Origin: Ophelia neglecta
Lineage: Eukaryota
DNA length: 64,000 nt
Direction of reading: 5' to 3'
NCBI GenBank assembly: GCA_965285935.1
Contig: OZ260665.1
Coordinates: forward strand, 54,622,001 to 54,686,000
The first letter of the stretch is position 1, and every line of letters begins with the position of its first letter. The translations under genes and the position numbers were made by a program. Shown here piece after piece: positions 10,586 through 54,340 of the stretch. The notes beneath the pieces are model-generated. The model had not been told where the DNA came from and did not search any database. It saw nothing but the letters and a program-made list of their open reading frames with translations.

Positions 10586-11061
10586 CAGAGCCATACATTT
10601 TCCGTTTATGACCTTGGCTGACCATTTACTCGTTCGTTCTGTAATCTAATTCGCATCATGGAAAACGGTTGACTACTCTTTATTGCAAGCGATAACAATT
10701 TCTGTTTTGGATTTTTTTTGGTTAAGTATTGTTGTGGTAGCTGGTGCCTGATGATATCACACCGATTTAATGGAGTATTTTCTGTCAGCGGTTTGACTTT
10801 GTCTGCCGGGCATCCACTCCCGGCCTCTATTTTCTATGTGCGATAATGTATCCAAATATACGTACGGTGATAAGATGTCATGTACACTGAAAACCGAGTA
10901 AGCAGGAAGTGCCAGATCAGAACGGGTTTGGCTGCGGATGGCGAGTGCCATTCAGAGTGAACCACTTAAGCAAGAATTACAATTGTATAGTATATACAAG
11001 GGAAATTGGCATTTTTGTCCGCATTAAAGATCTGGTTTCAATTTAGGTCGGGTTTCCTCTT

Positions 11062-12078
11062 CATATGGACTAATTGTTATTGCTTATAACAGGTATGTAC
11101 TCAACGTTTGATGGAATGACACCAATACAACCAGCATTTAATATAACAAAGAAAGAAATCAAGAATGGTTGGCAGTGGTGAACCTTGCCTGATGGTGTGT
11201 GGTGTCAAGTCTCTTTGAGAAGGTCCTTATTGGAATAAGAGGTCTCCATATGGCAAGACAAAAGTAGTTACCAGCTGCTCGTGTTTATTTTATCAGTTGC
11301 TCCAGTAATGAACATATAGAATATATGTTCATCATTTGAAAGGAAGGTTAATAAGGAATGAGAGAGACTATAAATGGTGGGGATTGGAACTAGTTATCAG
11401 AAAAGATAGGTTCTTTGGTGCGGCATAGTGACACTTGGAGGTTTTATCAATTTTCGAATCTAGGGAGCTGTACATAGAATTTCCAGCCCGTGGAAAGTTG
11501 GGAAGTAAAAATTCACGTAGGGCATCAATTTTTGTATCGATATTAGAAGCCCAATAACCAGGAAGTACAAAATCCGAATATTGACGGCGAATGCCAACCA
11601 AATCAACCCACAAAAACAAGCGTTCCAGTTTTCATTGAATAAAGAGGGCAATAATATCTATATTAAATATGTGCTGCTCATTTTTCTATATGGACTTTTC
11701 TAATATTGGTATTACTAATAACAGATGTGTGCACAGTATTTGATGGAATGAAGGCATTATAACTAGCATTTCATATAAAGAAGATAGAACTGAAAACTGG
11801 TTGGCAGTGGGTTAACCTCGCGAGATGGTGTGTGCCCGGTCTCTTTAGGAAAGCCCTGTTAGGTTGTTCATAATTGAAATAAGAAGTGTCTTAGTGGCAA
11901 GACAAAAGAAGTTACTAGCTGCCCGTATCTTATTATATAAGTTACACCAGTATTGTACACATATTGTTCAACATCGAAATGAAAGGTAATAGGAAATGAG
12001 AGAGGCTATTATTGGTGATGATTAGAACTAATTATCAGAAAAGTGTTTGGGGAGGCATGGTGGCATTTTGAGTTTTTT
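11062..12078. repeat. Old diverged direct duplication (units about 11062-11445 and 11690-12078, offset about 632-644)
   Basis: Collinear exact anchors: TTTGATGGAATGA at 11107/11739, TGGTTGGCAGTGG at 11166/11798, TGGCAAGACAAAAG at 11251/11895, TTATCAGAAAAG at 11394/12032. Confidence 0.88.
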
Positions 12079-13379
12079 GGGCATGTAATTGCTAATTCCT
12101 GATGATTGCGACCGATTTAATGGACCGTACTTGATTAATGATTTTTGCTTTGTGTACCGGGTATCAACTCGTGCAATGTCCTGGTTGCTTAGACGAAATT
12201 ATTTCATTCAAAGTAGCACTACCCCTCCCGGGTGACCATCCACATGCCCTTTATGGGCAGCATGGAAAGGAAAGGTAATAGGAAATGAGAGAGGCACAGG
12301 TAGAAGCCTCAGCTGCCTTTCTACGCCATCCATTATTAATCTCGTTATATGTGTGATTAATTCCTGCAAATCCTTCAGGTTTGGGTGATTAAGGCCAGGT
12401 TAGGGGGAATTATCTTCAATATGCTCGAAAATTAAATGTCAGCTCAAGGTAAATGATTTGAATTGTAGCTTTGAACCTCGTAGGAAACGCTCTTGGATAA
12501 ATAGTATATAATTGAGCTGTTCCGAGAAAAAAAGAAGTATGCACTATGGACAATTGAAAATGATTTAAACAATATGTATGGGGCCCCTTGCTTATCACAT
12601 TTCAGGAAAATATGAGATTGTTTAGCTCTAAGAGTACAAAATATGCACGGGATATAGCATTCATTTAAAATGCCTAGGATACATGCCTTGTAAACTAACA
12701 CTTAACGATGGTTAAGCTATTTTGTTTTGAGTTAGGTCATGTATCTTTTGAATCCTACTATTCACCCTACCTAAACGAAAAAGTGAAGTTGTGACGATAT
12801 TGTCCAGTCGATTGCCTTTTAAAGGCAAAGCCAAAACTACACATGTCTTTTGGAAAGTAGAGCAAAAAAGCTATAACTCCACTTGCAAAAACCGAAAAGA
12901 ATATTCTGTTGTTAATGTGTTTATACGTTTATGCACATATTTATAGAAATACAGAAGCTATAACAAATCCTAAAAAAACAACATATATTGCCAATACATT
13001 GTACGTAATTGGATCGACAATTAAATATATTGTTCATTTCATTTTATGAAACGAGTTTATGAATGGAGTTTTACAGTGGAATTAGTCCTGTCCAATTCAT
13101 AGTTCTTGTAAGAACGCAGGGGATACCAGTCAGATAAACATTGAAGTATTTAAGAACATTATCTATTTTTCCGTTTGAATATTCCAGGTACCAAAAACTA
13201 TTCGGACCAATATTAGGAAATAAAATAGTTTGTAGTTCATGACCAATTTATCAAGAAATTATTCCTAATTTTTGAAATTGATTCTTCCTTTAAATAGAGA
13301 ACAATCTAACACATTTCGTAATAATATGTTGCCGCCTAGTAAAAGTAAGCAATAGAGAAAAGGAGGATTGGATACTCGG

Positions 13380-15575
13380 CAGACAAAGCAAAGTCAATAA
13401 TGAAGAATAGTCCATTTAAAATGTCAGAAGCAAATAAATATACATGTAATGCAAATGAAAATTGAAAACATACAATTGAAATCGATTGCAATGAATTATA
13501 GCCAATATTTTTCCATGATGCGAGTCAGAGCATAAAACAAACGAGTCACCTCGAAAACGGAATAATGAATAAAAATACATTAATAATTAACAGGGCGCAC
13601 GCAAGGAACAGAATAATGCTATATGATTCTTCTTCGTTCTTCATTTAAGAGAGAGCCCCAAATACTAACAGTAATGCTTGAGGCAGGCTAGAGCAATGAC
13701 CGCAAGTGGTACCTGCTATATGCTCTGTGTAATATAATGAAATTTACCAATGTAATGACAGGTCTTATGTAGTGAATCTACATGACCTCGGCGAAAGAGG
13801 AAATGAAAAGCATTATTAACATTCCTTCAGACATCGCCTAGATTCTTAAAGAGAAACTGTGTCGGGCGCTGGTATATTTCACAATTGAAACATTATTGTG
13901 GTTGCTGACAAAGTTGTCTATACCGCGACATCAGTCAGTGGTCAGAATGACCAGGTATCATGTCGATGGCTTTTTGAATGTAGTTTCTATTGATGGAGAG
14001 TGTTAATTCACTTAAGCATTATAATCATGCAAATCAGAAGCAAGATGCTTTTTTTATGTATCAGAAATTTGTATGAGTATTCAGACGGCTTAGTTCAATA
14101 ATTGTTACAGGCTGCTAGATACAAGCAACAAATTAGGCTTGAGTGTCCTTCTGGTACCTCTTACCAATATAAGAATGGGTTAACACGTCAACAATGACCA
14201 GGAAAAAGAAAATGGCCGCCATGTTCAGGCTTAATCCCATAACTTTGTCTTGGGATGACCTAGAAGGCAGGTTTGTGGTTTCTTTACCAATCCTTTCAAG
14301 ACCAAAGGATTTAAATATGATGTACAAGAAATAGCAGACTTCTTGAAAAATAAGATGGTCGCTATTTCAAGCACATTAGTCCAGAACAAGAGCAAACTGA
14401 CTTGAATCATGGACTATATGATGAAAACATGAAATTTGGCAGACATGTATTTTAGGGTTCCCTGAACAATTTCTGTTTCGGGCCAACTCGAAAATATCGA
14501 GAAGTCTAGTGGAAAAAACAAAATGGCTGCCATTTCCAATCTATTTAATCCAATTTTTGTGTGACTTCACCTATGTTTTTAGGTAATAAGGGAATTCAAA
14601 AAATTAAAGACATACTGGAGATCATTTTCCCTTCCAGTTTCCCAAGTCCTTTTTGTTCGATAAACACCAATTCCCATACTGCAGATTTGCCCTTATTTAC
14701 ATAGATCTACAATGCTTAAGCATAACAATTCCGATTATCATGAAGTTGTATAACCATTTGAAAAACAAATGGCTGCCTTTTTCAGCAATGTTTCCATTGA
14801 AGGCAATTCACAATTCATTGCCTACACTTTGAAGGGACATTGTCAAATACAAAAATATTGCTAGATACAAACATATAAAGTATTAAGATGGCTAGCATAT
14901 AAAGGGCAGCTACAGGAAAGGATGGAACTGATATCCATACCTGTTAAAATGTCGATATTTTCATGTCTGAAATATGGAGTTTTGAAATCAAGATAATCCC
15001 AACAATTAGCTAGTTCTGTCTAATATTTGTTTACCATGACTGAAACAAAATGTGTATCAACCTTAACTTTAGCATCCGCTTTTCGATGAGATCAATCAAC
15101 AGATTCATATAAAACGAAATGATACCCTAACTGTTAGATGTTAACAGTCTCCTTAATGAGATCAGTATATCCAATGACATGAAGGTTCTTGCCTTAGCTT
15201 TTTCACTTAGATCAATTCTTCTAAAAATGGATATGTCTTCCTTGGTAAAAAAGTGGAATGCTGCAAAGCTTTGGCAATGGTACATTGTACCATGGTATGT
15301 TATTCATTATTGAAGTCAAGCATTAATTCTCTTAGGGTATATTTTATCGTAGTCCTTCGGTGACCACAAACGTTTTATGGTCTGACTCGCATCATGAAAA
15401 TATGTTGATTACCACTCATTGAAAGGTAATATCATGTTTTAATTTTTTTTAATTCTCATTACAAGTTTATTTGTATTTGAGAACTGGGTGTTGGTGTTAG
15501 ACTGTCTTGCAGCTGACGGTCCTGGTGATGTCTGCTCGATTTATTAGACTATTCTGTATTAATGATTTTCTCTGT
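13380..15575. repeat. Decayed long inverted repeat (arms about 13380-14040 and 14690-15575); possible foldback or long-TIR DNA transposon relic
   Basis: Antiparallel collinear anchors: 13404-13412 / 15547-15555; 13514-13538 / 15372-15396 (24 of 25 match); 13561-13572 / 15300-15311; 14011-14020 / 14711-14720. Confidence 0.72.
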
Positions 15576-34600: not shown

Positions 34601-35275
34601 GATATAACTTGCAATGAGAAGATGTCAGCAGTTTTCAGTTTTCCATTGTGCGAGTCAGAAAACAAAAAAAAAGGAGTCCATGGTCAACGTAGGGAAGATA
34701 CGAAAAATGCCCTATGTGAGAGACCTAGCTTTCCCCTAATTGTGAGGCGATACATTAATTTTGTCTCCTGAAGACGCCGGACCAGAGAAGGGTGTAAAAT
34801 GTTCCTGCACACTGAATAGGAACAGTTATGTATCAGCTTGATATTACAGTAAAGTAATAATTATGTGAAGTGCGCCAGCCATGCCTTTATTGTGACTGGA
34901 CCCGAGTATTATTCAGCAACCTACTATAGTAAATCAATTTACAGCAGATACACATTTTTTAATTGTCCCTCTCTCCCTGTCCTGTTCATCTGACCAAAAT
35001 ATTCTCAATTAATAAAAATTAATCAAAATTACAATTCTAGTTACTAAAATGTTGATTATCGGAACTGAGAGACAGAGACTTAGACAAAATAACTATGGGT
35101 TGTATAATTTATTTTATGTATCAACTTATGGTACCCTACAATTTGGAATTGTATATCATAACATTTTCGACAGACAGATTCTACATAACACGCGAAGGAC
35201 TCCCTATAGCCAATGTTATACCGATCATTTCCATGGCGTCATTGGCCACAACGCTTTGATTTTTAATAGAACATG

Positions 35276-35702
35276 TGTAACGATTGTGTCTATGCCTTTC
35301 AGACTTGTTCTTATTGTATTTAGCCTTGCAGGAATGGTCCTATTGTTCTAGCAGACCATGTGTAGTTGTTATTGTTTATAACTGTTTCATGGATTCTTAG
35401 TGGTCACTGACAGTACAGCAGGGACCAATAGTATCCCTTCTTTGTTTCTAGTCTGAAGTATATCAGACCATGTCTGTGACTGTTCTGTCTCAGATCCTGA
35501 CTAGCTGTTGCAGAGGTAAGACCGATTCACATTGAGTACTGTATACACACAGGCATGTGCCACTAAATTAGTATTGTAACAAGGTTACACTAATACACAA
35601 CGAGAAGCAATATTTACCACTGTTTAGTAATAAAGGATTATTAACAAAACTTTATAATTTGTCTTGGTAATTACTTTGAATGAACCAAGCAGGTTCATTA
35701 CA
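35276..35702 (+). repeat. 5' LTR (427 bp)
   Basis: Starts TGTAACGATTG and ends GGTTCATTACA; matches 42305-42731 with no mismatch seen. Contains AATAAA at 35629-35634 and a splice-donor-like GAG|GTAAGA at 35516. Confidence 0.97.
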
Positions 35703-35703
35703 T

Positions 35704-35715
35704 TGGTGCCGTGAC
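35704..35715 (+). promoter_or_regulatory. Primer-binding site complementary to the tRNA-His 3' end
   Basis: TGGTGCCGTGAC lies one base after the LTR end. It is the reverse complement of GUCACGGCACCA, the 3' end of eukaryotic cytosolic tRNA-His. Confidence 0.85.
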
Positions 35716-35808
35716 AAACCTATTCACATGTTGCCCTGTACATATACTTGTAGTTGAACCATGCCTTTGTGTGTATAACTTTGAAATATTTCATCATACT
35801 GATACAAT

Positions 35809-37605
35809 ATGGCTGGCTTTAGAGACTGGCTTAATAGGTCCTTGGGTAGGTTGACACCTTCCTTTGCTATGTCTCCTGAAGCCGGTATAGGTGAGGAAAC
35901 TTTGCAAGAGGAACAAATGAACACGCCTAGTCCAGATTCTGTTATTGGTAGCATCCCAACACAGAACCACAATTTGGATGAAAATCCATTCATGACTTCT
36001 GTTTCTTTGCCTTCCGCTGTGAACAATATGGATCAATATCCAACCGTCCACAACACTAATATTTCTCACAACTCTCTGGGCCTAGACCCAAACGCCAGTA
36101 ATACTAATTTACAACCTCTTGGTGGCTCTCTGGGTGTAAACCCAGGACCTAGCTACCCGACTTATACAGACAGACCTCACGTGTCTAATGCTACTACGGA
36201 TGCAATTCCGAATGACGGCATTAATGGTGCAACATTATTTTACAATGACTTTCCACTAGGTTACCCTATGGACCAACGTCCAAAAATTGGTGATCATTGG
36301 AAACCGGGTATATTTGGCCAAAATACTCAGGTAATGGCAACTAGTGTTTTACCCAATACAGTGATTGGAAGCCGCCAAAGGCAAGTTACTGCAGCCACAC
36401 CAACTCCTCATATTGGGGCATTCCCAAGTGAAGAGGCTTCAGAGTGGAGGAATCAGCTAGTTTACCCTCCATACTCTGCAGCTTACACCACTGCATCTAC
36501 AGTTCACTTATCAGCTGAATCCCGGGTAGTTAGTTCAGGGAACATGCAACGTGGTCAAACTTATCCTATCCCTATTGCCACAGGCACATACAATAAACAA
36601 CCGATCTATCCACCTGGGTACAGTAGCATTCTAAATACTCCATATAACGCTCCTACAACTTCTAGCATCTACTACCCTTACATTCAACAGCCACTTCCAC
36701 CAATTTTCTCATCGGCTGGAAATCTACACAACCAAATGGGACAAAGAAATATGATTCAACCTGAAGAAACTGGTTATTCTGGGTCTAGTCACCGTAGAAA
36801 GGAGAAAATGCCCATGGTTTTTGATGGCCTCAAAACTGAGTGGCAAGATTATTTGTGTCATTTCAGAGTGGTAGCCCGATGGAATGGTTGGTCCTATGAA
36901 GAGATGGCCATCCAACTAGGTTCTTCTCTGTCTGGTATACCATTGAGAATTTACAATTCCTTGCACCACTCTATACAATTTGACTTTGATAAATTGATTA
37001 TGACCATGACTCAGAAGCTAGATCCTCCTGAAAGAGAGGGTGCTTACAGATCTGAGCTTAGAGCTCGTCAACGAAAATCAGATGAAACTCCTGATGATTA
37101 TGCGAGAGAATTGTTACGGCTGGCTACTAAAGCCCACCCTAGACTTCTTGATAATGATCGAGAGGAATTGGTTATTGACCACTTCATTCGTGGAGTTGGC
37201 CCCAATGATATACAACGTCATGTCAATTTCAGTAGACCAGTGGATTTAAACAATGCAGTGGCTAGAGCCATTGAATATGAGAATTTTGTCCCTAATGATT
37301 TCAAAGGTAGGAAAGATAAACCTAAACCAATTGGAATATCCACTGTTGGGGACTTTAGAAGCCTAAAGAAAAAGACGCCTAACCGCCCGATAACAAACAA
37401 AGGCCAAAACAAACAACCAAAATTTCCAAAGGGCACCTGTTTTGGGTGCGGATCTACAGAACATTGGTTAGATAGATGCCCTACAAATCCAAAGAGAAAG
37501 AAAATAACAAAAGGGAATGAACTGAAAACCAGCACTGATGCAAAACAGGACAATGGAGAGAAAGATAACGGCCCTACAATGAGCGAAGTGAAAAAAAAAA
37601 ACTAA
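35809..37605 (+). CDS. gag: Gag polyprotein, 598 aa: long low-complexity N-terminus, capsid-like domain, one CCHC zinc knuckle
   Basis: ATG in good context (AAT ATG G). A capsid-like segment starts at about 36805 (PMVFDG..EWQDYLCHFRVVARWNGW...QRKSDETPDDYA...DHFIRG). Cx2Cx4Hx4C knuckle CFGCGSTEHWLDRC at 37438-37479. Confidence 0.93.
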   Translation: MAGFRDWLNRSLGRLTPSFAMSPEAGIGEETLQEEQMNTPSPDSVIGSIPTQNHNLDENPFMTSVSLPSAVNNMDQYPTVHNTNISHNSLGLDPNASNTNLQPLGGSLGVNPGPSYPTYTDRPHVSNATTDAIPNDGINGATLFYNDFPLGYPMDQRPKIGDHWKPGIFGQNTQVMATSVLPNTVIGSRQRQVTAATPTPHIGAFPSEEASEWRNQLVYPPYSAAYTTASTVHLSAESRVVSSGNMQRGQTYPIPIATGTYNKQPIYPPGYSSILNTPYNAPTTSSIYYPYIQQPLPPIFSSAGNLHNQMGQRNMIQPEETGYSGSSHRRKEKMPMVFDGLKTEWQDYLCHFRVVARWNGWSYEEMAIQLGSSLSGIPLRIYNSLHHSIQFDFDKLIMTMTQKLDPPEREGAYRSELRARQRKSDETPDDYARELLRLATKAHPRLLDNDREELVIDHFIRGVGPNDIQRHVNFSRPVDLNNAVARAIEYENFVPNDFKGRKDKPKPIGISTVGDFRSLKKKTPNRPITNKGQNKQPKFPKGTCFGCGSTEHWLDRCPTNPKRKKITKGNELKTSTDAKQDNGEKDNGPTMSEVKKKN

Positions 37606-37637
37606 CTTCGGCTGGGGAAGTGGCCCGCCCCTCAGCC
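37596..37637 (+). promoter_or_regulatory. Programmed -1 ribosomal frameshift signal (gag to pol)
   Basis: Slippery A AAA AAC (37596-37602) sits immediately before the gag TAA. After a 7-nt spacer comes the stem GGCTGGGG (37610-37617) / CCTCAGCC (37630-37637). pol is in the -1 frame and is open across the junction. Confidence 0.85.
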
Positions 37638-40600
37638 ATGCCGATAAATAAAAATTCCAGGCCGAGTATTATATCTCCCTTGTCACTTGATCAGTGTTGG
37701 TTTGCTTTTGTTGAAACTGGGGACATCGGGGTTAAATTTTTGATTGATTCTGGTGCAACACGCACATATCTGGCGAAAATCTTGTATGACAAGATGCAAC
37801 ATAAACCTCTTTTGCAAACGAGTCATGCTAACCCAGTCACAGTTTCGGGAGAAAGCATTCATGTGTACGGTGAATGCGAAATGGCACTTAACTTTTCTGT
37901 TGAACACACAATAAATCATGTAGTAACTATTGTGGATATGGATGAAGGAATTGGTATCCTAGGAAATGACTTTCTTAAAACACACGACTGTGTGACTTAC
38001 CACAAGAGAGGGGTTTTAACTATTAACGGACTCCCATTTTCCCTGTTAGAGGATGAAAAACCAAGATGTTGCCGAATAAATGTCGCTGAAACTGTAGTGA
38101 TTCCGGCACATAGTGAAACTATAGTCCCGGCGAGAATGGACTCAAACAGATTTAGGTCTGCAGACAGTTTATATGGTCTGATCGAGGCAGCAACCACAGT
38201 GACACCAGAAACTGGTCTCATAGTTGCTACTGAACTGGTTGATGTCAGAACTCCTGACATTCCCCTTAGTATTGCGAATTTCACTGATGAACCGGTGGTT
38301 CTAGCTAAGAATAAGACTATAGCTATTCTTAAACCATCCAATGAAATTCACGACATTTCACTTTCAAAAACTTCCATCCAAAATAGCGAATTTCTGAATA
38401 GTATAGGAGACTCCGATAATAATGCTGCTAAATCGTTTGAATCAATGTATAATGCATTACCTGAACATCTCCAAATAATGTTACAAAATGTGTCAGATGA
38501 TCTAACAGTTGATCAAAAACTTAAAATCGCTACTCTCTTGACAAAGTACCAAGATATATTTGCCGGACCAAACAAACCCTTGGGCCGAAATTCTTGGGTA
38601 AACCATCGTATTGATACACAAGATCATGAACCGTTATATATCCGACCATATCGCCTCCCCTTGGCCAAAAAACAGATTTGTAGAGACCAAGTAGAAAAAA
38701 TGTTACAAGAGGATGTGATTGAACCGAGCAACAGCCCATGGTCAGCCCCCATTGTTCTTATTACAAAGAAGGACAAATCAACAAGATTTTGTATTGACTT
38801 CAGGAGGTTAAATAAAATAACCAAAGTGGACACGTATCCTATGCCCAAGATTGATGAGATTCTTGACAGTCTGTCGGGATCAGAATGGTTTAGTACTTTG
38901 GATCTAAAGGCTGGCTATTGGCAGGTCGAAATTGATGAACGTGACAGAGAAAAAACTACTTTTGCCACGCCCCAGGGTTCATTCCGATTTAAGGTCCTCC
39001 CGTTCGGATTGGCAAATAGTCCCCGAACCTTCTCGAGACTTATGCAAATGGTTTTGCATGGTATAGAATGGTTAAGGTGTTTGGTTTACTTAGATGATAT
39101 AATGGTTTTTGGCAGGTCTTTTGAAGAGGCCTTGCAAAATTTGGAGTGCGTTTTTGAAAGATTGAAAATTGCCGATCTCAAACTGAATCCAAAGAAATGT
39201 GACCTCTTTCAAAGTGAGGCCAAGTTTCTTGGACATTTGGTAAGCAAAGACGGAGTGTCCTGTGACCCCGACAAGGTCAGCGACATTATTGATTGGCCAG
39301 AACCTTGCAACATATCTGACCTCAGATCATTTATGGGAATTGCATCTTATTATAGATCTTTTGTTCCTGACTTTGCCAATATAGCTGCTCCGTTAACTGA
39401 TTTGACATGTAAAGGAGTAGGTTTTAGATGGACGGTAGAATGTCAACATGCTTTTGAGCAACTCAGGTGTCATCTTGGGTCTGCCCCTATTCTTGCTTTT
39501 CCTGATGACGACGGCATGTATATTCTAGATACCGATGCCTCCGATTTTGCCATCGGGGCAGTTCTGTCCCAAGTGCAGAATGATAAAGAACATGTCATTG
39601 CTTATGCCAGCAACAGACTGAGCAAAGAAGAACGCAATTACTGTACCACAAAGAGAGAACTCTTAGCAGTAATTTACTATGTTAAAAAGTTCCACCATTA
39701 CCTATGGGGAAAACATTTTGTTGTTAGAACAGACCATGCAGCTCTTACATGGTTAAGAAATTTCAAAGAACCTACTGGTATGATTGCTAGATGGATTGCT
39801 ACCCTGGATATGTATGATATTGAGGTGCAACACAGGAAAGGTTCCCAACATTTGAATGCTGATGCACTCAGTCGCAAACCGTCACGTCGCTGTAAACGTC
39901 CGGATTGTCCACAGTGTTGTGAAGTTTATGGTGAACTGCTCGCTGCGGTTCTAACTCGAAAAATGGCTCAGAATCTTGCTTTTCCTGATCCCACCTATAC
40001 AGATAGGCAGTGCACGGCCAATTCTGTGGGAGGAGGGGAGGTTGGTGTTAGGGACACCAAGGAAAAAGTTGGAAGTTCTGAAACCATTGATTCGAGTGAT
40101 GAATATAATGAGGATGCCAAGAAAGGCACAGCAAGTAAAAACCCGGTAGTCACTGAAAATGTAGACGGTTACTCCATATCCAACTTTATGGACACTTGGT
40201 CTAAAGAGAGTATCAGAAATTGGCAAAATTCAGACTCACAAATCCAGAAAATTATTCGCTGGAAGGAAGCATGCAATGACAAACCTTCCAAGGATGAAGT
40301 CCGTCCTGAGAGTAATCTGGTCAAGTGTCTGATAAGCCAGTGGGATTCTCTGCAATTAGCAAATGGTGTCCTTTATCAAAAATGGAAACCGAGACATTCT
40401 TCCCAGTGTGTGTGGAGAATAGTAGCTCCGACGACTCTTAGAACTGAATTATTTGAGCACTTACATAACAAATCTTCCGGGGGTCATTTAGGTTTTCGTG
40501 GAACTCTTGAGAAAGTCCAAATGCGTTGCTATTGGCCAGGCATGCGTGAGGATGTGTATCGTTGGTGTAGATCATGTAAATTATGTAAATACCGCAAGTC

Positions 40601-41483
40601 GAAACGAGCAAAGAAAGCGCCCTTGAAACAACTCCCTGTTAGCTATCCCTTTCAGCGAGTTGCTATAGACATATTGAAACCAGGAAGAAAATCGAGACAA
40701 GGAAACCAATATATTATTGTAGTGTGTGACTATTTCACTAAATGGGTTGAAGCCTTTGCAGTCCCAAATCATACAGCTCAGACTGTTGCTGACAAGGTAG
40801 TTAGTGAAGTATTTCTCCGTTTTGGTATTCCGGAACAAATTCATTCAGACCAAGGAAAAGAATTCGAAAGTAACCTCTTTGGTTCAATTTGTGACATTTT
40901 AAAAGTAAAGAAGACCCGAACGGCTCCATATCGAGCTCAGTCAGATGGTCTAGTCGAACGATTCAATCGTACTTGTCTACAGATGCTTAGTTTGGCTACT
41001 AGTGGTAATCGAACCGACTGGGAAGACCAACTTCCTTTTATTTTGTGTGCCTATCGAGCAACACCTCATTCTTCTACGCTATGTACGCCAAACTTACTAA
41101 TGTTAGGACGGGAGAGTACCCTACCGGTAGACATACTGTTGGGTCCCCCTCCTTTTGAACACCCAATGTGTCCAATCGAGTATGTAGAATGGCTGAGACA
41201 AAGTCTAGTCGAAGCCCATGAATTGACAAGAACTACTCTGCGGAAGTCCGCAATTCATCAAAAGAGATTTTATGACACAAAAACTAAGTCGAGAAGCTTT
41301 GCCCAGGGTGATCAAGTTATGTACTATTATGTGCCCAAGGAACGGGACAAATTAACGCCTAATTGGCAGGGCCCTTATACAGTGTCAAAGGTGATGAATG
41401 AGGTTGATGTAGAAATAAGGAAAAGTGAAAGTTCTAAGCCAAAGACTGTTCACATAGACTATTTAATACATTGTTTAGATTAA
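37602..41483 (+). CDS. pol: Pol polyprotein (aspartic protease, reverse transcriptase, RNase H, integrase), translated as a Gag-Pol fusion
   Basis: PR: FLIDSGA (37737-37757). RT: PWSAPIV, RFCIDFRRLN, LPFGL, YLDD (39087-39098). RNase H: DTDASD, YCTTKRELLA, TDH, NADALSR. IN: HHCC finger (H..GGHLG...CRSC), DIL, HSDQG, ERFNR, and the GPY/F motif WQGPY. No stops or frameshifts. The ORF-track GTG start at 37620 is not the biological start. Confidence 0.97.
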   Translation, partial: LTSAGEVARPSAMPINKNSRPSIISPLSLDQCWFAFVETGDIGVKFLIDSGATRTYLAKILYDKMQHKPLLQTSHANPVTVSGESIHVYGECEMALNFSVEHTINHVVTIVDMDEGIGILGNDFLKTHDCVTYHKRGVLTINGLPFSLLEDEKPRCCRINVAETVVIPAHSETIVPARMDSNRFRSADSLYGLIEAATTVTPETGLIVATELVDVRTPDIPLSIANFTDEPVVLAKNKTIAILKPSNEIHDISLSKTSIQNSEFLNSIGDSDNNAAKSFESMYNALPEHLQIMLQNVSDDLTVDQKLKIATLLTKYQDIFAGPNKPLGRNSWVNHRIDTQDHEPLYIRPYRLPLAKKQICRDQVEKMLQEDVIEPSNSPWSAPIVLITKKDKSTRFCIDFRRLNKITKVDTYPMPKIDEILDSLSGSEWFSTLDLKAGYWQVEIDERDREKTTFATPQGSFRFKVLPFGLANSPRTFSRLMQMVLHGIEWLRCLVYLDDIMVFGRSFEEALQNLECVFERLKIADLKLNPKKCDLFQSEAKFLGHLVSKDGVSCDPDKVSDIIDWPEPCNISDLRSFMGIASYYRSFVPDFANIAAPLTDLTCKGVGFRWTVECQHAFEQLRCHLGSAPILAFPDDDGMYILDTDASDFAIGAVLSQVQNDKEHVIAYASNRLSKEERNYCTTKRELLAVIYYVKKFHHYLWGKHFVVRTDHAALTWLRNFKEPTGMIARWIATLDMYDIEVQHRKGSQHLNADALSRKPSRRCKRPDCPQCCEVYGELLAAVLTRKMAQNLAFPDPTYTDRQCTANSVGGGEVGVRDTKEKVGSSETIDSSDEYNEDAKKGTASKNPVVTENVDGYSISNFMDTWSKESIRNWQNSDSQIQKIIRWKEACNDKPSKDEVRPESNLVKCLISQWDSLQLANGVLYQKWKPRHSSQCVWRIVAPTTLRTELFEHLHNKSSGGHLGFRGTLEKVQMRCYWPGMREDVYRWCRSCKLCKYRKSKRAKKAPLKQLPVSYPFQRVAIDILKPGRKSRQGNQYIIVVCDYFTKWVEAFAVPNHTAQTVADKVVSEVFLRFGIPEQIHSDQGKEFESNLFGSICDILKVKKTRTAPYRAQSDGLVERFNRTCLQMLSLATSGNRTDWEDQLPFILCAYRATPHSSTLCTPNLLMLGRESTLPVDILLGPPPFEHPMCPIEYVEWLRQSLVEAHELTRTTLRKSAIHQKRFYDTKTKSRSFAQGDQVMYYYVPKERDKLTPNWQGPYTVSKVMNEVDVEIRKSESSKPKTVHIDYLIHCLD

Positions 41484-41539
41484 GTTAAATGTTAACCTTA
41501 CACTTCGTAGTCAAGAAATATTCATTCATTAAATAGCTA

Positions 41540-41559
41540 TTTCCCCTTTTTGTTATTAG
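41540..41559 (+). promoter_or_regulatory. Candidate 3' splice acceptor for the ORF3 subgenomic mRNA
   Basis: Polypyrimidine tract plus TAG (AG at 41558-41559), ending 5 nt before the ORF3 ATG. Confidence 0.55.
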
Positions 41560-41564
41560 TTACC

Positions 41565-42050
41565 ATGGCATCTCCCCAGACACAAGACAAGGAGTTAGTT
41601 CCATGTGAAGTGGAATTCTGTAGTAATCAATTTTTGATATACAGCGGAATGGAAAAATTATGTCGTCACTGGGAAGAGGTGCATGCCTCTTACACCCAGG
41701 TATTTAAATGTAAAGTCTGTGGATTTCTTTCTAAAAGGAAATCGAACATTAGTAGACATGTTACGGCCAAACATAAAAAGGTAGATAAAACCCAGATTGT
41801 ATATATGATATTGCCAAATAAAGGGTTTCAAGCGCCTGAGAATACTATTGCCCCGAAAAACTATAAGGGACAAGTAGCCATTTCCCCCTTCACTACCGCG
41901 TCATGGAATGGGCGACTGGAAACCATTCGAACAGGCGTACTAGACTGCTCAGACGCCGGAGTTGCGGAGAGAGGCCGATTCATCTACCGGAGTCGTGGAG
42001 ATGAGCTGTTCGTCTACCGGAATGTGTTAGATTACCAAGGTCATTTGTGA
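41565..42050 (+). CDS. Retrotransposon ORF3: 161-aa protein with two C2H2-type zinc fingers in the env position (not env-like)
   Basis: Lies inside the LTRs, between the pol stop and the PPT. The ATG is in ACCATGG, preceded by the acceptor-like TTTCCCCTTTTTGTTATTAG. Finger 1 is CEVEFC-x15-HWEEVH; finger 2 is FKCKVC-x12-HVTAKH (canonical spacing). No signal peptide or transmembrane stretch. Confidence 0.82.
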   Translation: MASPQTQDKELVPCEVEFCSNQFLIYSGMEKLCRHWEEVHASYTQVFKCKVCGFLSKRKSNISRHVTAKHKKVDKTQIVYMILPNKGFQAPENTIAPKNYKGQVAISPFTTASWNGRLETIRTGVLDCSDAGVAERGRFIYRSRGDELFVYRNVLDYQGHL

Positions 42051-42292
42051 AGAAGAGTATTTTGTTTCACAACAAACTGTTAAAACATTTTTGTTGATTC
42101 CAGTATAGGAGTTATAGGAAAAACATTATTATGGTATGATTAGTCCTTATTTTATGTTATCAGGTAAAAGTTTCGTAATGACTGCCAGTTTAGGAGTCAT
42201 AATTTATTTCTCTTGTTTAATATTTTTAACAACTTGATTGTTCGTTGATTTAGTATTTAGCCATGTTTACACTGATGACACAGTCACAGTGT

Positions 42293-42304
42293 AGTTGGGG
42301 GGAA
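42293..42304 (+). promoter_or_regulatory. Polypurine tract (plus-strand primer)
   Basis: AGTTGGGGGGAA abuts the TG of the 3' LTR. Confidence 0.8.
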
Positions 42305-42731
42305 TGTAACGATTGTGTCTATGCCTTTCAGACTTGTTCTTATTGTATTTAGCCTTGCAGGAATGGTCCTATTGTTCTAGCAGACCATGTGTAGTTGTTA
42401 TTGTTTATAACTGTTTCATGGATTCTTAGTGGTCACTGACAGTACAGCAGGGACCAATAGTATCCCTTCTTTGTTTCTAGTCTGAAGTATATCAGACCAT
42501 GTCTGTGACTGTTCTGTCTCAGATCCTGACTAGCTGTTGCAGAGGTAAGACCGATTCACATTGAGTACTGTATACACACAGGCATGTGCCACTAAATTAG
42601 TATTGTAACAAGGTTACACTAATACACAACGAGAAGCAATATTTACCACTGTTTAGTAATAAAGGATTATTAACAAAACTTTATAATTTGTCTTGGTAAT
42701 TACTTTGAATGAACCAAGCAGGTTCATTACA
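42305..42731 (+). repeat. 3' LTR (427 bp)
   Basis: Copy of 35276-35702 at offset 7029. AATAAA at 42658-42663, donor-like GT at 42545, followed by the CATG TSD. Confidence 0.97.
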
Positions 42732-42907
42732 CATGTATGTTCACTTTCCCATCCATCACGAAACCCCTACCGGCAATCGATAGGACTTGTTTTCAAATAA
42801 GATTAATGTATGGACATTTTCCTCTCGTCTTGCCATTTAGCTCATTCGATCTGCCTCGCCTTGAGCGTATTACTTACTCAGAGCGCACATAGGCGTTTGC
42901 AATCATA

Positions 42908-42943: not shown

Positions 42944-43421
42944 ATGTGAAGAGCAAAGGAGGGAATCTTTGTAGATCACTTCAGATGGTTTTGTTTGTGC
43001 AATAAGGACAGCAATATTACTGGACATGAGTCGATGGTTGATTGGGCCAAACTAAACATTACCAGCTCCCCGACGGATTTTTCTGTTACAACATTGAAGG
43101 CGACCGCTTCCGGAAATGACGTAATCAGCCAGTCTCTGCGTGCTGCCAGGTGACGCTGTTCCACCGCTGATGAACTCCACAGCCGGAAATTCTGGTCTCC
43201 TGATGTCGTGTCAGTACCTGAAGAATGATTATGATCAGTGTGCGATTCAGAGGCGGTGAATGGGATTTATTAGTGATGCATTCAACGCAGATAATGTGTA
43301 CAAATTCCATAACAAGGTCACATCCACATCTTAATACTATCTATTACGGCAGTGATGCTGAGATTGTTGCTTGCCTGTAAGCAGTTTGTCGAGCGATAGT
43401 ACGAGCATTCGCGAAGGATAT

Positions 43422-44494
43422 ATGGAGATGGAGCCGATGGCGGGATCGGACGACGGGTTACCTTCCTATGTCACTTTTATCAACACTTGCGACTCTCCCA
43501 TTACCCACCAGAAGGCGACACAGACCGCCAAAAGCATTCCGCGCCTGCCTCCCCCGGCGATTAGCCGGGTTGCCAGCATCGCCAGGCCACCTCTGGAGCG
43601 AGCGAGCTCCGTGCCGGAGCGCGCCACTCTACGTAGCACCGAAGTCAGCGCCAGCAAACCGTCCGTTGATAAACCCTACTATGGCGACAGGCCGAGTAGA
43701 GATGTCTTGAGTCGGGTCCGCGAGAGGAGCAGCGTTGACTCGGTACGGGAAAGGAGTGGCGCCAGGGATGGCTATCCGAGCAAGCATACCCCCTTCGTTG
43801 CCACATTCTCCAAACTCGGCTCTCTGGGCAAATTGTCCTCAATCTCCCAAGAAAGAGTGGACCGGGCCGGCAAAGGATACTCTAACAATGTGGGGAGCAT
43901 CGAGAGACCTATCGAGCTCATTCCTATGGATGAAAACAATGTCCCCATGATAGATCAAGCCATCACTCCACCCACTACGCCGACGAGATCTGTAGGACAC
44001 GGTAATATGTTTAACGCCGGTGGTTTCAAGGGCCTGGCTAAACGAAAGCTGCCGAGCCTGAAGTTCAAGCGGGGTAGGTTGGCATCGTCCCGTTCTGATA
44101 AGGAATCGGGCACCTCCTCGCCGTCGTCAAACCCTGCCAACCCAACAATCACCATCACCATGAATGACGACGGCGATGATTCCATCAGCATGGTGTCGGA
44201 CTACCTTAGCCCCGACCAGAACTTCAGGCGGGACCGGGGTTCCTCCCCATTTCCTAACATCGGCGATGAGGTGAGCCTATATGGCACGCCTAAAGAGGAG
44301 CCTTTCAAGGAATGCGACAGCCAAAAGTCCAACACTGCCGCCAATTATCTAAAGGATCAGATCATATCCTTTTTCCAACCTTCTGACAATAAGCTCGCTA
44401 TGAAATTATTTGGCAATAAAAACGCGCTTATGAAAGAGAAAATGCGCCAAAAGGCTGCAGGAAACTGGGTCATTCATCCTTGCAGTAACTTCAG
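43422..44494 (+). CDS. HCN: First large coding exon of a hyperpolarization-activated cyclic nucleotide-gated channel (invertebrate HCN/Ih): cytoplasmic N-terminus and HCN domain, up to S1
   Basis: Contains VSLYGTPKEE and DQIISFFQPSDNKLAMKLFGNKNALMKEKMRQKAAGNWVIHPCSNFR, which are characteristic of invertebrate Ih/HCN. The exon ends at a canonical donor CAG|GTGAGT (GT at 44495, phase 2). An in-frame TGA at 43359 precedes the first ATG at 43422; 43428 and 43437 are alternative starts. Confidence 0.93.
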
Positions 44495-47400
44495 GTGAGT
44501 AGATTTGTATCAATCAAAACAAAAAATAATTATACCACTTTATTTAAACCACATGCATGTCTAACTTAGTTTCATCGCAGGAAACATAATAAAGTTTTTC
44601 TAGGTTTAGATTTGATGAAGTCTGCTACTTCTCTAATCACCAATTCATTGGAAAATAGCCCATTCAATGTTTGGACATTATTGCCGTAATCTTACATTAT
44701 CCATTTTGCCCTGACTTAATGTTCAATGAGATTAGTCCATTTCGCCCGTTATAGTGTTCCATAAAGTTATAAAGGAAACTAAGATTCTCTTTTAAATGGC
44801 CATTACAAATACGAGAATATGTTTTTTTTTCACTTTCTGCCAAATCTTAGTTGACCACTCCCACCTACAAATGTCAGAGTATTCTTACTGTCTTTAAAAT
44901 CCCTAAAAAAGCAAGATTTTTAGTCAAGCCCTTGATCTGAGAGGAGACATACGACTAATCTCCTTTTTCTTTTTCATGTTGCTCCATTGTTTAATGTGCC
45001 TTTCGTTCACCCGAACTTTTAATTTCGTTAATGTTCTGCGGTGTAACACATATTGAACACACGATTTCCTTTGTACTGCTGCTACAGGCAGAAAAAAACA
45101 TCTTGGATGCATAAATGTAAATCTTGACTTGGGTGCAGTTTGGCAGCCATTTCCCTGGGGATAAAGGCTATTGCCAACAGCGTCCCGTCTAGATCTTGAA
45201 CTACGAGGAGCGCGGAACTGGCTTGAAATAATGCTAATTGACAAGCAGAACTGCCTTGCTGCATGCTTACAGTCAAATACGTTGAGGTAATATAAGAGAC
45301 ACTTCCGCTTGGCAATCCGTAACTGAGAAAACGTCTTTTTTATGCTACAACTTAATTGATGGTTAAGTCTTGAAACGGAATGGAACACGCCACCAATACC
45401 ATTAAAAAGAGTTCTCATTTCCATACATGAACTCAACAGTTTGTATGCTCCATCGAGCTTTTTATTGTCATATAAAAGTCATGTCCTCACCTTGGCCGTG
45501 CAAATCATTATTATTATACAGTGATAAGTGTTTTTATGGTATTTTGAGTTTAACAAGTCTTGTTTTGGAATGTTACGTGTCGAGACAGCCTCGTAAAAAA
45601 CGTGTGTGTGCGTCATATCATCCCATTGAGCCAATCAGAAACGCAGAACCATGGTGCCATCTAGAAAACATGGCATATACAAGGAGTATGATGGCGCGGG
45701 ATTTAGCCTCAAACTGGTCTTTGTTGTTGTTCCGGGGTCTACTTGAAGTATTGATGTTCCCAGGATTATGCATCTCTGCCCTATTAACTTCATCATTGCT
45801 GCCTTGCAATCTTCAACAGCCACTTCAACTTGCAATGACGTGTTCATGCTCGAATAAAAGCAAAACTTAGTCGAACTGTCTGGGCTTCAAATATCAATAC
45901 TCTCCGACAGTACCATTTACTGTGGGAGGATGGCCCTTTAGACGCTCGCTAGGAAAGTCTCTTGTACAAAATGAACAAATGCCCATAACTTTTTCTAGTC
46001 CATTAAACTAATAACTGCAGATTATGAGTCTCAAGAAGTGTGAAAGATCCGAATTGGTTTCAACTTGAGATCACCAAGCTACCTGTTTTTTACTCTGTCA
46101 GTTTGCAATACCAGAATTTATGAGAGCACTTGAGTATGGGTGATATTCGTATGAGGGGTAAATACCTTATGCCTCAGCATTCTGGATCTTTTGAGTAGGC
46201 TGTTATTTGATTCAGTGGTACAAATGGTGCTTAAACCAGAAAACACAAGCCACAGAACTAAATAGTACATTGCCATGGCAGCTTGGGTCGTGGCGACCTT
46301 GTTTTTTTCACCAAGTGAATTTACTGGTATCCATCTATAGCTAGAATCATGCAATGGTGTGTATTTCTGCCAGTGTCATATTATTGTAATCCTCGGTTAT
46401 CATGAAACAACCAAGATATGGATTATAATGGCTTCCCTCCCATATTTTAGAAATGCAACAATGTTATTACTAAATTTAAGAAATGTGGGAGTGACTATAT
46501 AGATTGGGCACAATGAAAAGCAAACTGTGAATAGTAACTTGAGTTATTTTCCCCGCGAGGCGAAGGATTGGGTGACAAAGGCGGCCCTTCTGGCCTACAT
46601 GATGAAGCTTTCGTGCAACACCTGGTATCTGAGCATCCAAGATAAAAAAACAGACAGCCAGTCATTCATTAAAATCAGCAAGAGAGCAGGCCCCAGAAAG
46701 AGCAATACGGCCGTTTTTTCTATCGGCCTTTGCCATCATTGATTTCTTGCGATGGCCACATGCTTCTGACATCGATATATCCGGTAGCAAGTGATTTGGG
46801 CAAACCGGACGCCCTAACTCAAGATAGACAGTGCCTAGAGAGAACTAGATCATTAACAGGCAGATGTATCTGATTGAAACACCGGAGAAATGTGCAATTA
46901 AGGTGAAACAGTTGAACAATGTGCCTTTCGTAAATCAGATGGGTTTTTACTGCTCACATGCAGACTGTGCTGAATGTGTCTGGCTTGAACGGCAAGGCTG
47001 CCCTGCCCGCTAAACATGGTAATTTATACAACGGAATATTTGAGTAAGCTCGTTTTAAGGCCACACTCGAAACCGAAAACTAACCTAAGCAATGAATGAG
47101 TTATGTCCTGAATTAAAAGCGGCTTATGTTTCTCCACTTGGTAGATCTAAGATATCTTGTCGATAACGCACCGCCGTCTGCCTTCTTTGGATTGTTTTCC
47201 TTCTTACAATATTGACAGCAGTGCTCATTCTCATGTAGTCTGTGATCTCGAATAAAGCATAAAAAACCTCCCGATACAAAGCTATACAATGTGCCCATCG
47301 GAGTTCGATACAGCTTCAACACTTGTGCCGCGGGAAACAGGTATTTTTGGGATATTTTTGTTCTCAAATGATTTGTTATGCCATTTAGCACGAAGACTAT

Positions 47401-53193: not shown

Positions 53194-54340
53194 GCTCATT
53201 TCTCTTTGTGGAATACGATAATTTTCCTATGGCAGTCTTAATAACGTGTGTGGTTTTTAGGAACTGGCTTCCAGCTAGTTTGTGTCTGCTGACTTATATG
53301 TCATATAACCTTTGGTATACTAAAATCTATTTAAAGAATCGTGTCTTACATGTCTCTAGGAGATATCTATTGTTGTATTGTAAAAATCTATGATTTTACA
53401 TGTTATTCTAATTCTCGAAAACAACTCAGGAAGCATATATTTATGTCACCGATGGAGCCTTCTTATCACGCCTCGGGAAATGTGCTCAGACGATGTAGCA
53501 AACAATGAATCTAAAACTCTAGAATATTTCTCTTTTTTTATTTATATTACACTTTACTTTGTTTGCTTGGATATATTAAAAACTCATCATATTAAATTCT
53601 ATTCCAAGTGTTCGACGTTTGATTAGCGTCATACATGCGAACAGCAGTTGAGCCCTGGCTCTCAAGTCTAGGGCTTTTTCTGCTTTGGAAGATAAGTTGT
53701 ATTGGACGATCTGGAAAAATTCCAAAATTCATTCATTAATTTCATGCAATGCTACTATTGCTTAAGCTCATTTCTCTTTGTGGAATACGATAATTTTCCT
53801 ATGGCAGTCTTAATAACGTGTGTGGTTTTTAGGAACTGGCTTCCAGCTAGTTTGTGTCTGCTGACTTATATGTCATATAACCTTTGGTATACTAAAATCT
53901 ATTTAAAGAATCGTGTCTTACATGTCTCTAGGAGATATCTATTGTTGTATTGTAAAAATCTATGATTTTACATGTTATTCTAATTCTCGAAAACAACTCA
54001 GGAAGCATATATTTATGTCACCGATGGAGCCTTCTTATCACGCCTCGGGAAATGTGCTCAGACGATGTAGCAAACAATGAATCTAAAACTCTAGAATATT
54101 TCTCTTTTTTTATTTATATTACACTTTACTTTGTTTGCTTGGATATATTAAAAACTCATCATATTAAATTCTATTCCAAGTGTTCGACGTTTGATTAGCG
54201 TCATACATGCGAACAGCAGTTGAGCCCTGGCTCTCAAGTCTAGGGCTTTTTCTGCTTTGGAAGATAAGTTGTATTGGACGATCTGGAAAAATTCCAAAAT
54301 TCATTCATTAATTTCATGCAATGCTACTATTGCTTAAGCT
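53194..54340. repeat. Perfect tandem duplication, 2 x 572 bp
   Basis: 53194-53765 equals 53766-54337 with no mismatch seen (identical ORFs at 53390 and 53962). GCT microhomology at the junctions. Confidence 0.96.

Follow-up and report, generated by a model that had tools for sequence, protein, structure and literature searches.

The window analyzed in this study is a stretch of 64,000 nt of Ophelia neglecta DNA (assembly GCA_965285935.1, contig OZ260665.1, positions 54,622,001-54,686,000 of the forward strand); positions given below are counted within it. The region 35276-42731 is an intact, young Ty3/Gypsy retrotransposon bounded by long terminal repeats (LTRs), a member of the Metaviridae that is neither an errantivirus nor a foamy virus. 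Downstream of gag and pol the element carries a third open reading frame (ORF3), coding for a zinc-finger protein (Table 1). On balance, we favor the view that ORF3 is expressed from an RNA spliced at an acceptor ending at 41559, probably with a donor lying inside the LTR (GT at 35516) as main partner. The predicted intron (35516-41559, 6044 nt) spans the 5' AATAAA, the primer binding site, gag and pol. The acceptor is the better supported half of the predicted splice, the donor the weaker one. The original prediction had placed the donor GT at 35516, the end of the acceptor at 41559, the ORF3 ATG at 41565, an AATAAA at 35629 and a TATAA at 35377, and all these coordinates are correct; the donors at 35846 and 35891 within gag, the TATA-like box at 35459, the LTR ATG at 35470 and a gap of about 102 bp in ORF3 were absent from it.

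Table 1. Features of the retrotransposon and of the adjacent host DNA
Feature	Position	Strand	Basis
Target-site duplication, 4 bp	35272..35275 (left), 42732-42735 (right)	+	sequence
5' LTR, 427 bp, TG...CA, same sequence as 3' LTR	35276..35702	+	sequence
Core promoter candidate A: TATAA (35377) with an initiator-like site about 29 nt further on, predicted start about 35406	35377..35408	+	
Core promoter candidate B: TATA-like box (35459), predicted start about 35490	35459..35492	+	inferred
ATG in the LTR, reading open up to the donor and, once spliced as predicted, in frame with ORF3	35470..35472	+	sequence
Predicted splice donor GAG/GTAAGA, GT at 35516 (copy at 42545 in 3' LTR)	35513..35521	+	
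Poly(A) signal AATAAA, 113 nt 3' of the LTR donor	35629..35634 (3' LTR copy 42658)	+	
Primer binding site, pairing over 12 nt with the host tRNA-His 3' end	35704..35715	+	sequence match
gag, 598 aa, with a CCHC knuckle close to the C-terminus	35809..37605	+	
Competing donors 3' of the primer site (GT 35846, GT 35891), each in frame with ORF3	35843..35896	+	
pol, 1304 codons stop to stop, order protease-reverse transcriptase (RT)-RNase H-integrase	37569..41483	+	Pfam scan
Predicted -1 frameshift site, A-run then GC-rich hairpin (-15.5 kcal/mol)	37591..37637	+	inferred
Predicted splice acceptor, pyrimidine tract, AG at 41558-41559	41540..41559	+	sequence, clade comparison
ORF3, two C2H2-like zinc fingers and N-K-x-F/Y-x-x-P strand, 161 aa in this copy	41565..42050	+	
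Polypurine tract	42297..42304	+	sequence
3' LTR, carries the donor copy at 42545	42305..42731	+	sequence
Host exon of a channel gene, presumably HCN-like (Ion_trans_N, E 7.6e-25), 0.6 kb 3' of the element	43362..44498	+	

The acceptor and the third reading frame

The ORF3 ATG (41565) lies 5 nt past the AG at 41559. The pyrimidine count of this acceptor is equalled in only 9 of the 1755 YAG sites of the window, the site itself belonging to this top tier, and shuffling its own 100 nt yields a score as high in 39 of 500 trials. No better acceptor is found within 400 nt after the pol stop. The position of the site was compared in related elements of the same genome. From 137 integrase matches 40 were retrieved; nine repeat family copies and three outgroup elements were left out, and the remaining 28 families (F022 and F023 being near-identical) make up with the window element a set of 29. 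In an integrase tree restricted to families of this genome the 29 form one supported clade, in which the window element is a long branch, at most 49% identical to the others. A third ORF follows pol in all 29 families, is broken in some copies, and in many starts with a zinc-binding motif.

The best AG in the 62 nt preceding the ORF3 start is at most 15 nt from the start in 27/29 families, with a positive score in 21/29; for this count starts were read by eye from the translations, and in two families set at the acceptor itself. The background is given by 82 of 1382 ATGs within pol, and by 104 of 1176 ATGs in the flanks of the window. A blind test took, for each family, only the top-scoring acceptor of the 400 nt past the pol stop; this site led to an ATG followed by 80 open codons in 15 families out of 29, versus 52 of 779 other AGs. 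AGs close to the start are spread across all subclades of the integrase tree. The families are kin by descent, and p-values consequently overstate their independence. Within the window's own family, 10 of 12 ORF3 loci retain the AG; the two lacking it have common flanks, and resemble one dead insertion. Judged from its sequence and its recurrence in the clade, the acceptor at 41559 very probably functions for the ORF3 RNA.

ORF3 itself is, by its substitution pattern, a genuine gene under purifying selection. The ratio of nonsynonymous to synonymous changes (pN/pS) is 0.26-0.34 in comparisons with four diverged copies, close to the 0.21-0.24 obtained for the pol tail with two of those four. 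The protein measures 156 aa in six of seven close sister copies, and an early stop is found in one; a short repeat array near 41957, in the 3' part of ORF3, is about 102 bp shorter in the window copy, which ends differently from its sisters (L002-L008) as a result. Zinc-finger matches in Pfam are all under the curated cut-off. The structure model has two fingers, is confident over residues 11-100, and finds its best solved match, a weak one (E 0.12), in a two-finger DNA-binding peptide. A word-index protein search with ORF3 returned no match. A HMMER library search returned 397 matches at E 0.001, mostly generic zinc-finger proteins; a few short ones feature the two fingers together with the N-K-x-F/Y-x-x-P module, in records from which genomic context is absent. 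Matches in the ESM Atlas are unnamed clusters (0.94-0.95). Five very long proteins (P0001-P0005) include up to 21 matching stretches that repeat the two-finger module of ORF3, and an exchange of such modules between elements and host genes appears possible from these sequences. One sister copy carries a 3-kb insertion exactly at the ORF3 start codon (L108:530; L107:2710), the acceptor upstream being undamaged.

ORF3 varies in kind among families. In the sister families F031 (L031) and F027 (L027/L057, L101) it codes for a B-box followed by a coiled-coil-like region, begins at the acceptor, and has no ATG before the B-box. A large subclade (L025, L026, L030, L078, L082, L084, L098, L029, L036) shares an ORF3 of 300-520 aa; no Pfam match was found in the two members scanned, and some of these ORFs hold an internal C-x2-C...H-x4-H motif. 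L034 and L035, from an outgroup Gypsy family, have a long third ORF starting with a signal-peptide-like stretch, possibly env-like.

The candidate donor in the LTR and its rivals

Scored with general metazoan weight matrices, not trained on Ophelia neglecta introns, the LTR donor reaches 6.3, the highest value of the element. The same score is reached by 7 of the 3665 GT sites of the window, two of which are the LTR copies themselves, and in 6 of 200 shuffles of the LTR; dinucleotide shuffles give p=0.05. The donor is retained in 9/9 young copies, and improved in an LTR 87% alike (L011). A second GTGAGT is found 16 nt 3' of the donor in L009, L010, L012, L014 and L015, and through it a donor-like GT is retained at this place in every LTR at least 82% alike. 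Two candidate core promoters lie ahead of it. In promoter A, laid out by the general spacing rule from TATA box to start, the initiator-like block is conserved in relatives 70-87% alike, the TATAA is not; the box of promoter B is better conserved than the TATAA at 35377, and is a canonical TATATAA in L016, a relative 75% alike. Both candidate starts precede the donor, and the sequence is in this respect compatible with a spliced RNA initiated in the LTR, as anticipated.

Additional indications come from the clade. In short LTRs the best sense donor exceeds the best antisense donor in 13 cases out of 17 (p=0.025), and in 7/8 of a held-out second batch. F031 and F027 LTRs contain an AATAAA, and an ATG placed 12-15 nt before the best LTR donor, in the phase needed for ORF3; the F031 LTR donor ranks first of 65 in-phase candidates. 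This putative mini-exon is the most telling case for a donor in the LTR. Further B-box loci, considered as independent cases, turned out to be F027-family members, or decayed copies without a usable LTR. None of the 12 ORF3 loci in the window's family is an intron-less copy, which is weakly expected for an RNA lacking the primer site. The internally deleted copies L001 (36348 to 42294) and L004 (37268 to 39318) were considered as retro-copies of spliced RNAs and rejected, as their ends miss the predicted splice sites. A 317-nt intron in the 3' untranslated region (42164-42480) could be bounded by a donor-like site at 42164 and by the 3' LTR copy (42480) of an acceptor-like site within the LTR (35433-35451).

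Several observations weigh against the LTR donor, or against the splice as a whole. The GT at 35516 is gone from 5 of the 13 aligned LTRs (L014-L018, 70-82% alike), and the L016 and L017 LTRs have no good donor at all. Compared with dinucleotide shuffles, LTR donors are not significant clade-wide (combined p=0.07 with the window element, 0.14 without it). The count of LTR donor motifs, 8/9 in a first batch of families, fell to chance level in the second (5/10 vs. 4.7 expected). LTR donors are weak in the nearest families, F019 and F059. In 8/8 long LTRs (>700 bp) the best antisense donor outscores the best sense donor. F031 and F027 represent a single lineage, and an open ATG before the donor occurs also in 3/15 other short LTRs. 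Folding reveals no steady difference in donor access between 5' and 3' contexts, the unpaired probability being 0.26-0.48 in the former and 0.18-0.44 in the latter. Branch-point motifs are not enriched before the acceptors (10/27 vs. 9.1 expected). The long LTRs with a stronger antisense donor (L020, L053, L054, L024, L032, L067, L071, L075) are a sequence hint of spliced antisense transcripts.

The same acceptor might be joined to a donor within the initial codons of gag (35891 or 35846), so that a short Gag leader would precede the zinc fingers, as in the CERV protein of the C. elegans element Cer1, and the LTR GT would be unused or minor. It is on this choice that the predicted spliced RNA is less secure: the acceptor is well supported, by its clade-wide position and by the purifying selection on ORF3, whereas the donor is in question because both gag sites are in frame. 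They score 3.1 (35846) and 5.9 (35891) vs. 6.3 for the LTR donor, and are, equally with it, kept in 9/9 copies. F027 has an in-phase gag donor of 6.5 vs. -0.3 for its LTR donor, and in F026 a strong, conserved donor follows shortly after the primer site. The loss of the LTR GT in older relatives, and the use of gag-frame exons by CERV (available passages of PMC10309623), point the same way. Being in frame has, however, a chance of one in three, the cap-proximal LTR donor has the top score, and the F031 mini-exon heads its list of candidates; more weakly, a gag-spliced RNA would keep the primer site, yet no intron-less locus is found among the 12. We rate a gag donor as unlikely. That no long splice occurs, ORF3 relying instead on an internal promoter at the pol end or on re-initiation along genomic RNA, and the pyrimidine tract being an AT-rich spacer, seems very unlikely. 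Accessory ORFs of the Drosophila MDG1 group are expressed unspliced (bioRxiv 2025.03.14.642691, in part), foamy viruses have an internal promoter (PMC3694450, in part), ORF3 has its own ATG in a strong context, and the branch-point signal is absent; but an AG 0-15 nt before the start in nearly all families is far commoner than at non-coding ATGs, and B-box families with no ATG before the domain need an upstream exon.

The LTR GT may alternatively be a U1 site or a donor for other uses, such as holding back 5' polyadenylation only, or splicing from the 3' LTR (42545) into a host gene, or may lie in untranscribed U3. We give little credence to these uses, even if the order of donor and AATAAA is that of foamy viruses (excerpts of PMC3694450) and a host exon lies 0.6 kb 3' on the same strand, since the GT lies downstream of both promoter candidates and folding lends no support to a 5'/3' switch. 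Moreover, the insertion is young and its empty site is present in DNA runs, hence host use cannot explain the origin of the GT.

If the LTR donor is the main partner of the acceptor, transcription would start in the LTR at about 35490 (or about 35406), and yield one primary RNA with a short first exon in R. Left unspliced, this RNA would be both gag-pol message and genome; spliced from the first exon to 41560, it would make the zinc-finger protein and, being devoid of the primer site, would not be reverse transcribed. ORF3 would be translated from its own ATG with the start at about 35490; the LTR ATG at 35470 would be used only with the promoter A start, and would add 17 residues in frame. 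By analogy with foamy viruses, U1 bound at the LTR donor, 113 nt before the AATAAA, may restrain early polyadenylation in the 5' LTR. The ORF3 protein would most likely be a nucleic-acid-binding regulator of the expression of its own element, acting on transcription or on the export of unspliced RNA; this is the weakest step, suggested by the analogy with CERV only.

A broader reading is tentative and rather doubtful. An entire clade of invertebrate Gypsy elements would consist of complex retrotransposons, which express a swappable regulator (C2H2, B-box, or other) via an LTR donor in R, in a foamy-like layout reached independently; the start codon would reside in an LTR mini-exon in one lineage, and splicing would be coupled to poly(A) control and to the absence of the primer site. 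An accessory gene placed clade-wide behind a fixed acceptor is more interesting than the single junction, which taken alone is ordinary.

Age of the family and host surroundings

The family is young, as 19 of 35 LTR matches in the genome are full-length at 97% identity or more. LTR pairs are identical in five of the seven sister copies checked, and each copy has its own 4-bp target duplication. Contigs from DNA runs join 35270 to 42731, and correspond to the empty site; the insertion is therefore polymorphic. Three sequencing runs cover the element, the flank and a host intron evenly, in a DNA-like manner and with no splice joint, and are uninformative on expression. A sister copy (L005:1474-1540) contains an inversion in which about 35 nt from the tRNA-His 3' end, CCA included, are joined to reverse-complement U5; this stretch is, by its sequence, a trace of the primer tRNA copied in reverse transcription. 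tRNA-His-like genes form a tandem array with a spacing of about 950 bp at G000:C7:71719725-71764433.

Gag has no match at E 0.1 in a Pfam scan, and its CCHC knuckle sits in the expected place. An errantivirus, or env-bearing gypsy element, was considered and rejected, as the zinc-finger matches and the two-finger model indicate that ORF3 is not an envelope glycoprotein. The Gmr1 lineage was likewise rejected: it needs the integrase before the RT (PMC2774666, in the part available), and the integrase is here 3' of RNase H.

The donor copy in the 3' LTR (42545) could splice read-through RNA into the downstream channel gene, the HCN label of which is our assumption. Right before the channel exon a GC-rich stretch (43100-43140), possibly its promoter, includes motifs which we take to be ETS- and CRE-like. 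Away from the element, the window also contains inverted and direct repeats that have diverged, and a 572-bp duplication of recent date (10628-15424, 11073-12043, 53194-54065).

Comparison with known systems

The env genes of the insect errantiviruses gypsy and ZAM are expressed via splicing. The element resembles them in having a third ORF after pol with an acceptor before it, and differs in that ORF3 is a zinc-finger protein of 156-161 aa without envelope features. The comparison with env, proposed initially, is consequently the wrong one, and CERV is closer. Drosophila elements of the MDG1 group are similar as env-less Gypsy elements with accessory ORFs (sORF1 and sORF2), one of them nuclear; their ORFs are mostly upstream of gag and unspliced, and sORF2 is a membrane fusogen (bioRxiv 10.1101/2025.03.14.642691, in part).

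Donors placed before the primer site were already known, and the novelty attributed to such a donor, and to splicing as a switch, was overstated: foamy viruses and human T-cell leukemia virus type 1 (HTLV-1) provide precedents (available passages of PMC3694450 and PMC3504254), and retroelements in general face a choice between genomic and spliced RNA. In foamy viruses the major splice donor is in R, before the primer site and the poly(A) signal; use of this donor and U1-mediated poly(A) suppression are proven by experiment, and the layout is called unique among retroviruses (PMC3694450, in part). The donor precedes the poly(A) signal here too, in both LTRs (35516 < 35629; 42545 < 42658). Foamy viruses are in contrast retroviruses with env, a spliced pol and an internal promoter, and the layout described here is known from sequence alone. 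In HTLV-1/2 a U5 element is present only in unspliced RNA, which for HTLV-1 implies that the major donor precedes U5 and with it the primer site; as proposed here, the donor is ahead of the primer site, and spliced RNAs yield regulatory proteins encoded at the 3' end (passages of PMC3504254). HTLV-1/2 differ in being deltaretroviruses, with a poly(A) signal in U3 and Tax and Rex proteins unlike C2H2 fingers.

A clade-wide spliced zinc-finger/B-box accessory gene of invertebrate Gypsy elements is unreported in the literature found. The available part of the survey PMC6238403 has no passage on extra ORFs in mollusc LTR elements, and those of PMC2774666 and PMC12801592 are silent too. No published description of a spliced zinc-finger/B-box ORF3 in invertebrate Gypsy elements was found; Repbase, subscription papers or supplements may hold one. 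Should this hold for some 29 families of a single invertebrate genome, with zinc-finger or B-box domains swapped behind a fixed acceptor, regulated RNA processing and self-encoded regulators would be common in env-less retrotransposons, and a route would exist for zinc-finger modules between elements and host genes. The clade is suited to an RNA-seq test of where LTR-internal donors arose.

A closer parallel is CERV, a non-env ORF located after pol and before the 3' LTR, as is ORF3. Its spliced RNA joins exons in the gag frame to the post-pol ORF, the protein is needed for export of genomic RNA, and CERV is reported to have no homologue outside nematodes (PMC10309623, in the passages available). 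Compared by description only, CERV is a protein of 517 aa from five exons, of which exons 1-3 are in the gag frame, and ORF3 is a short C2H2 ORF with its own ATG. Spliced regulatory genes are a hallmark of complex retroviruses, and Cer1 CERV is the worked-out Gypsy case found; in its working, the Ophelia element resembles a simple version of a complex retrovirus.

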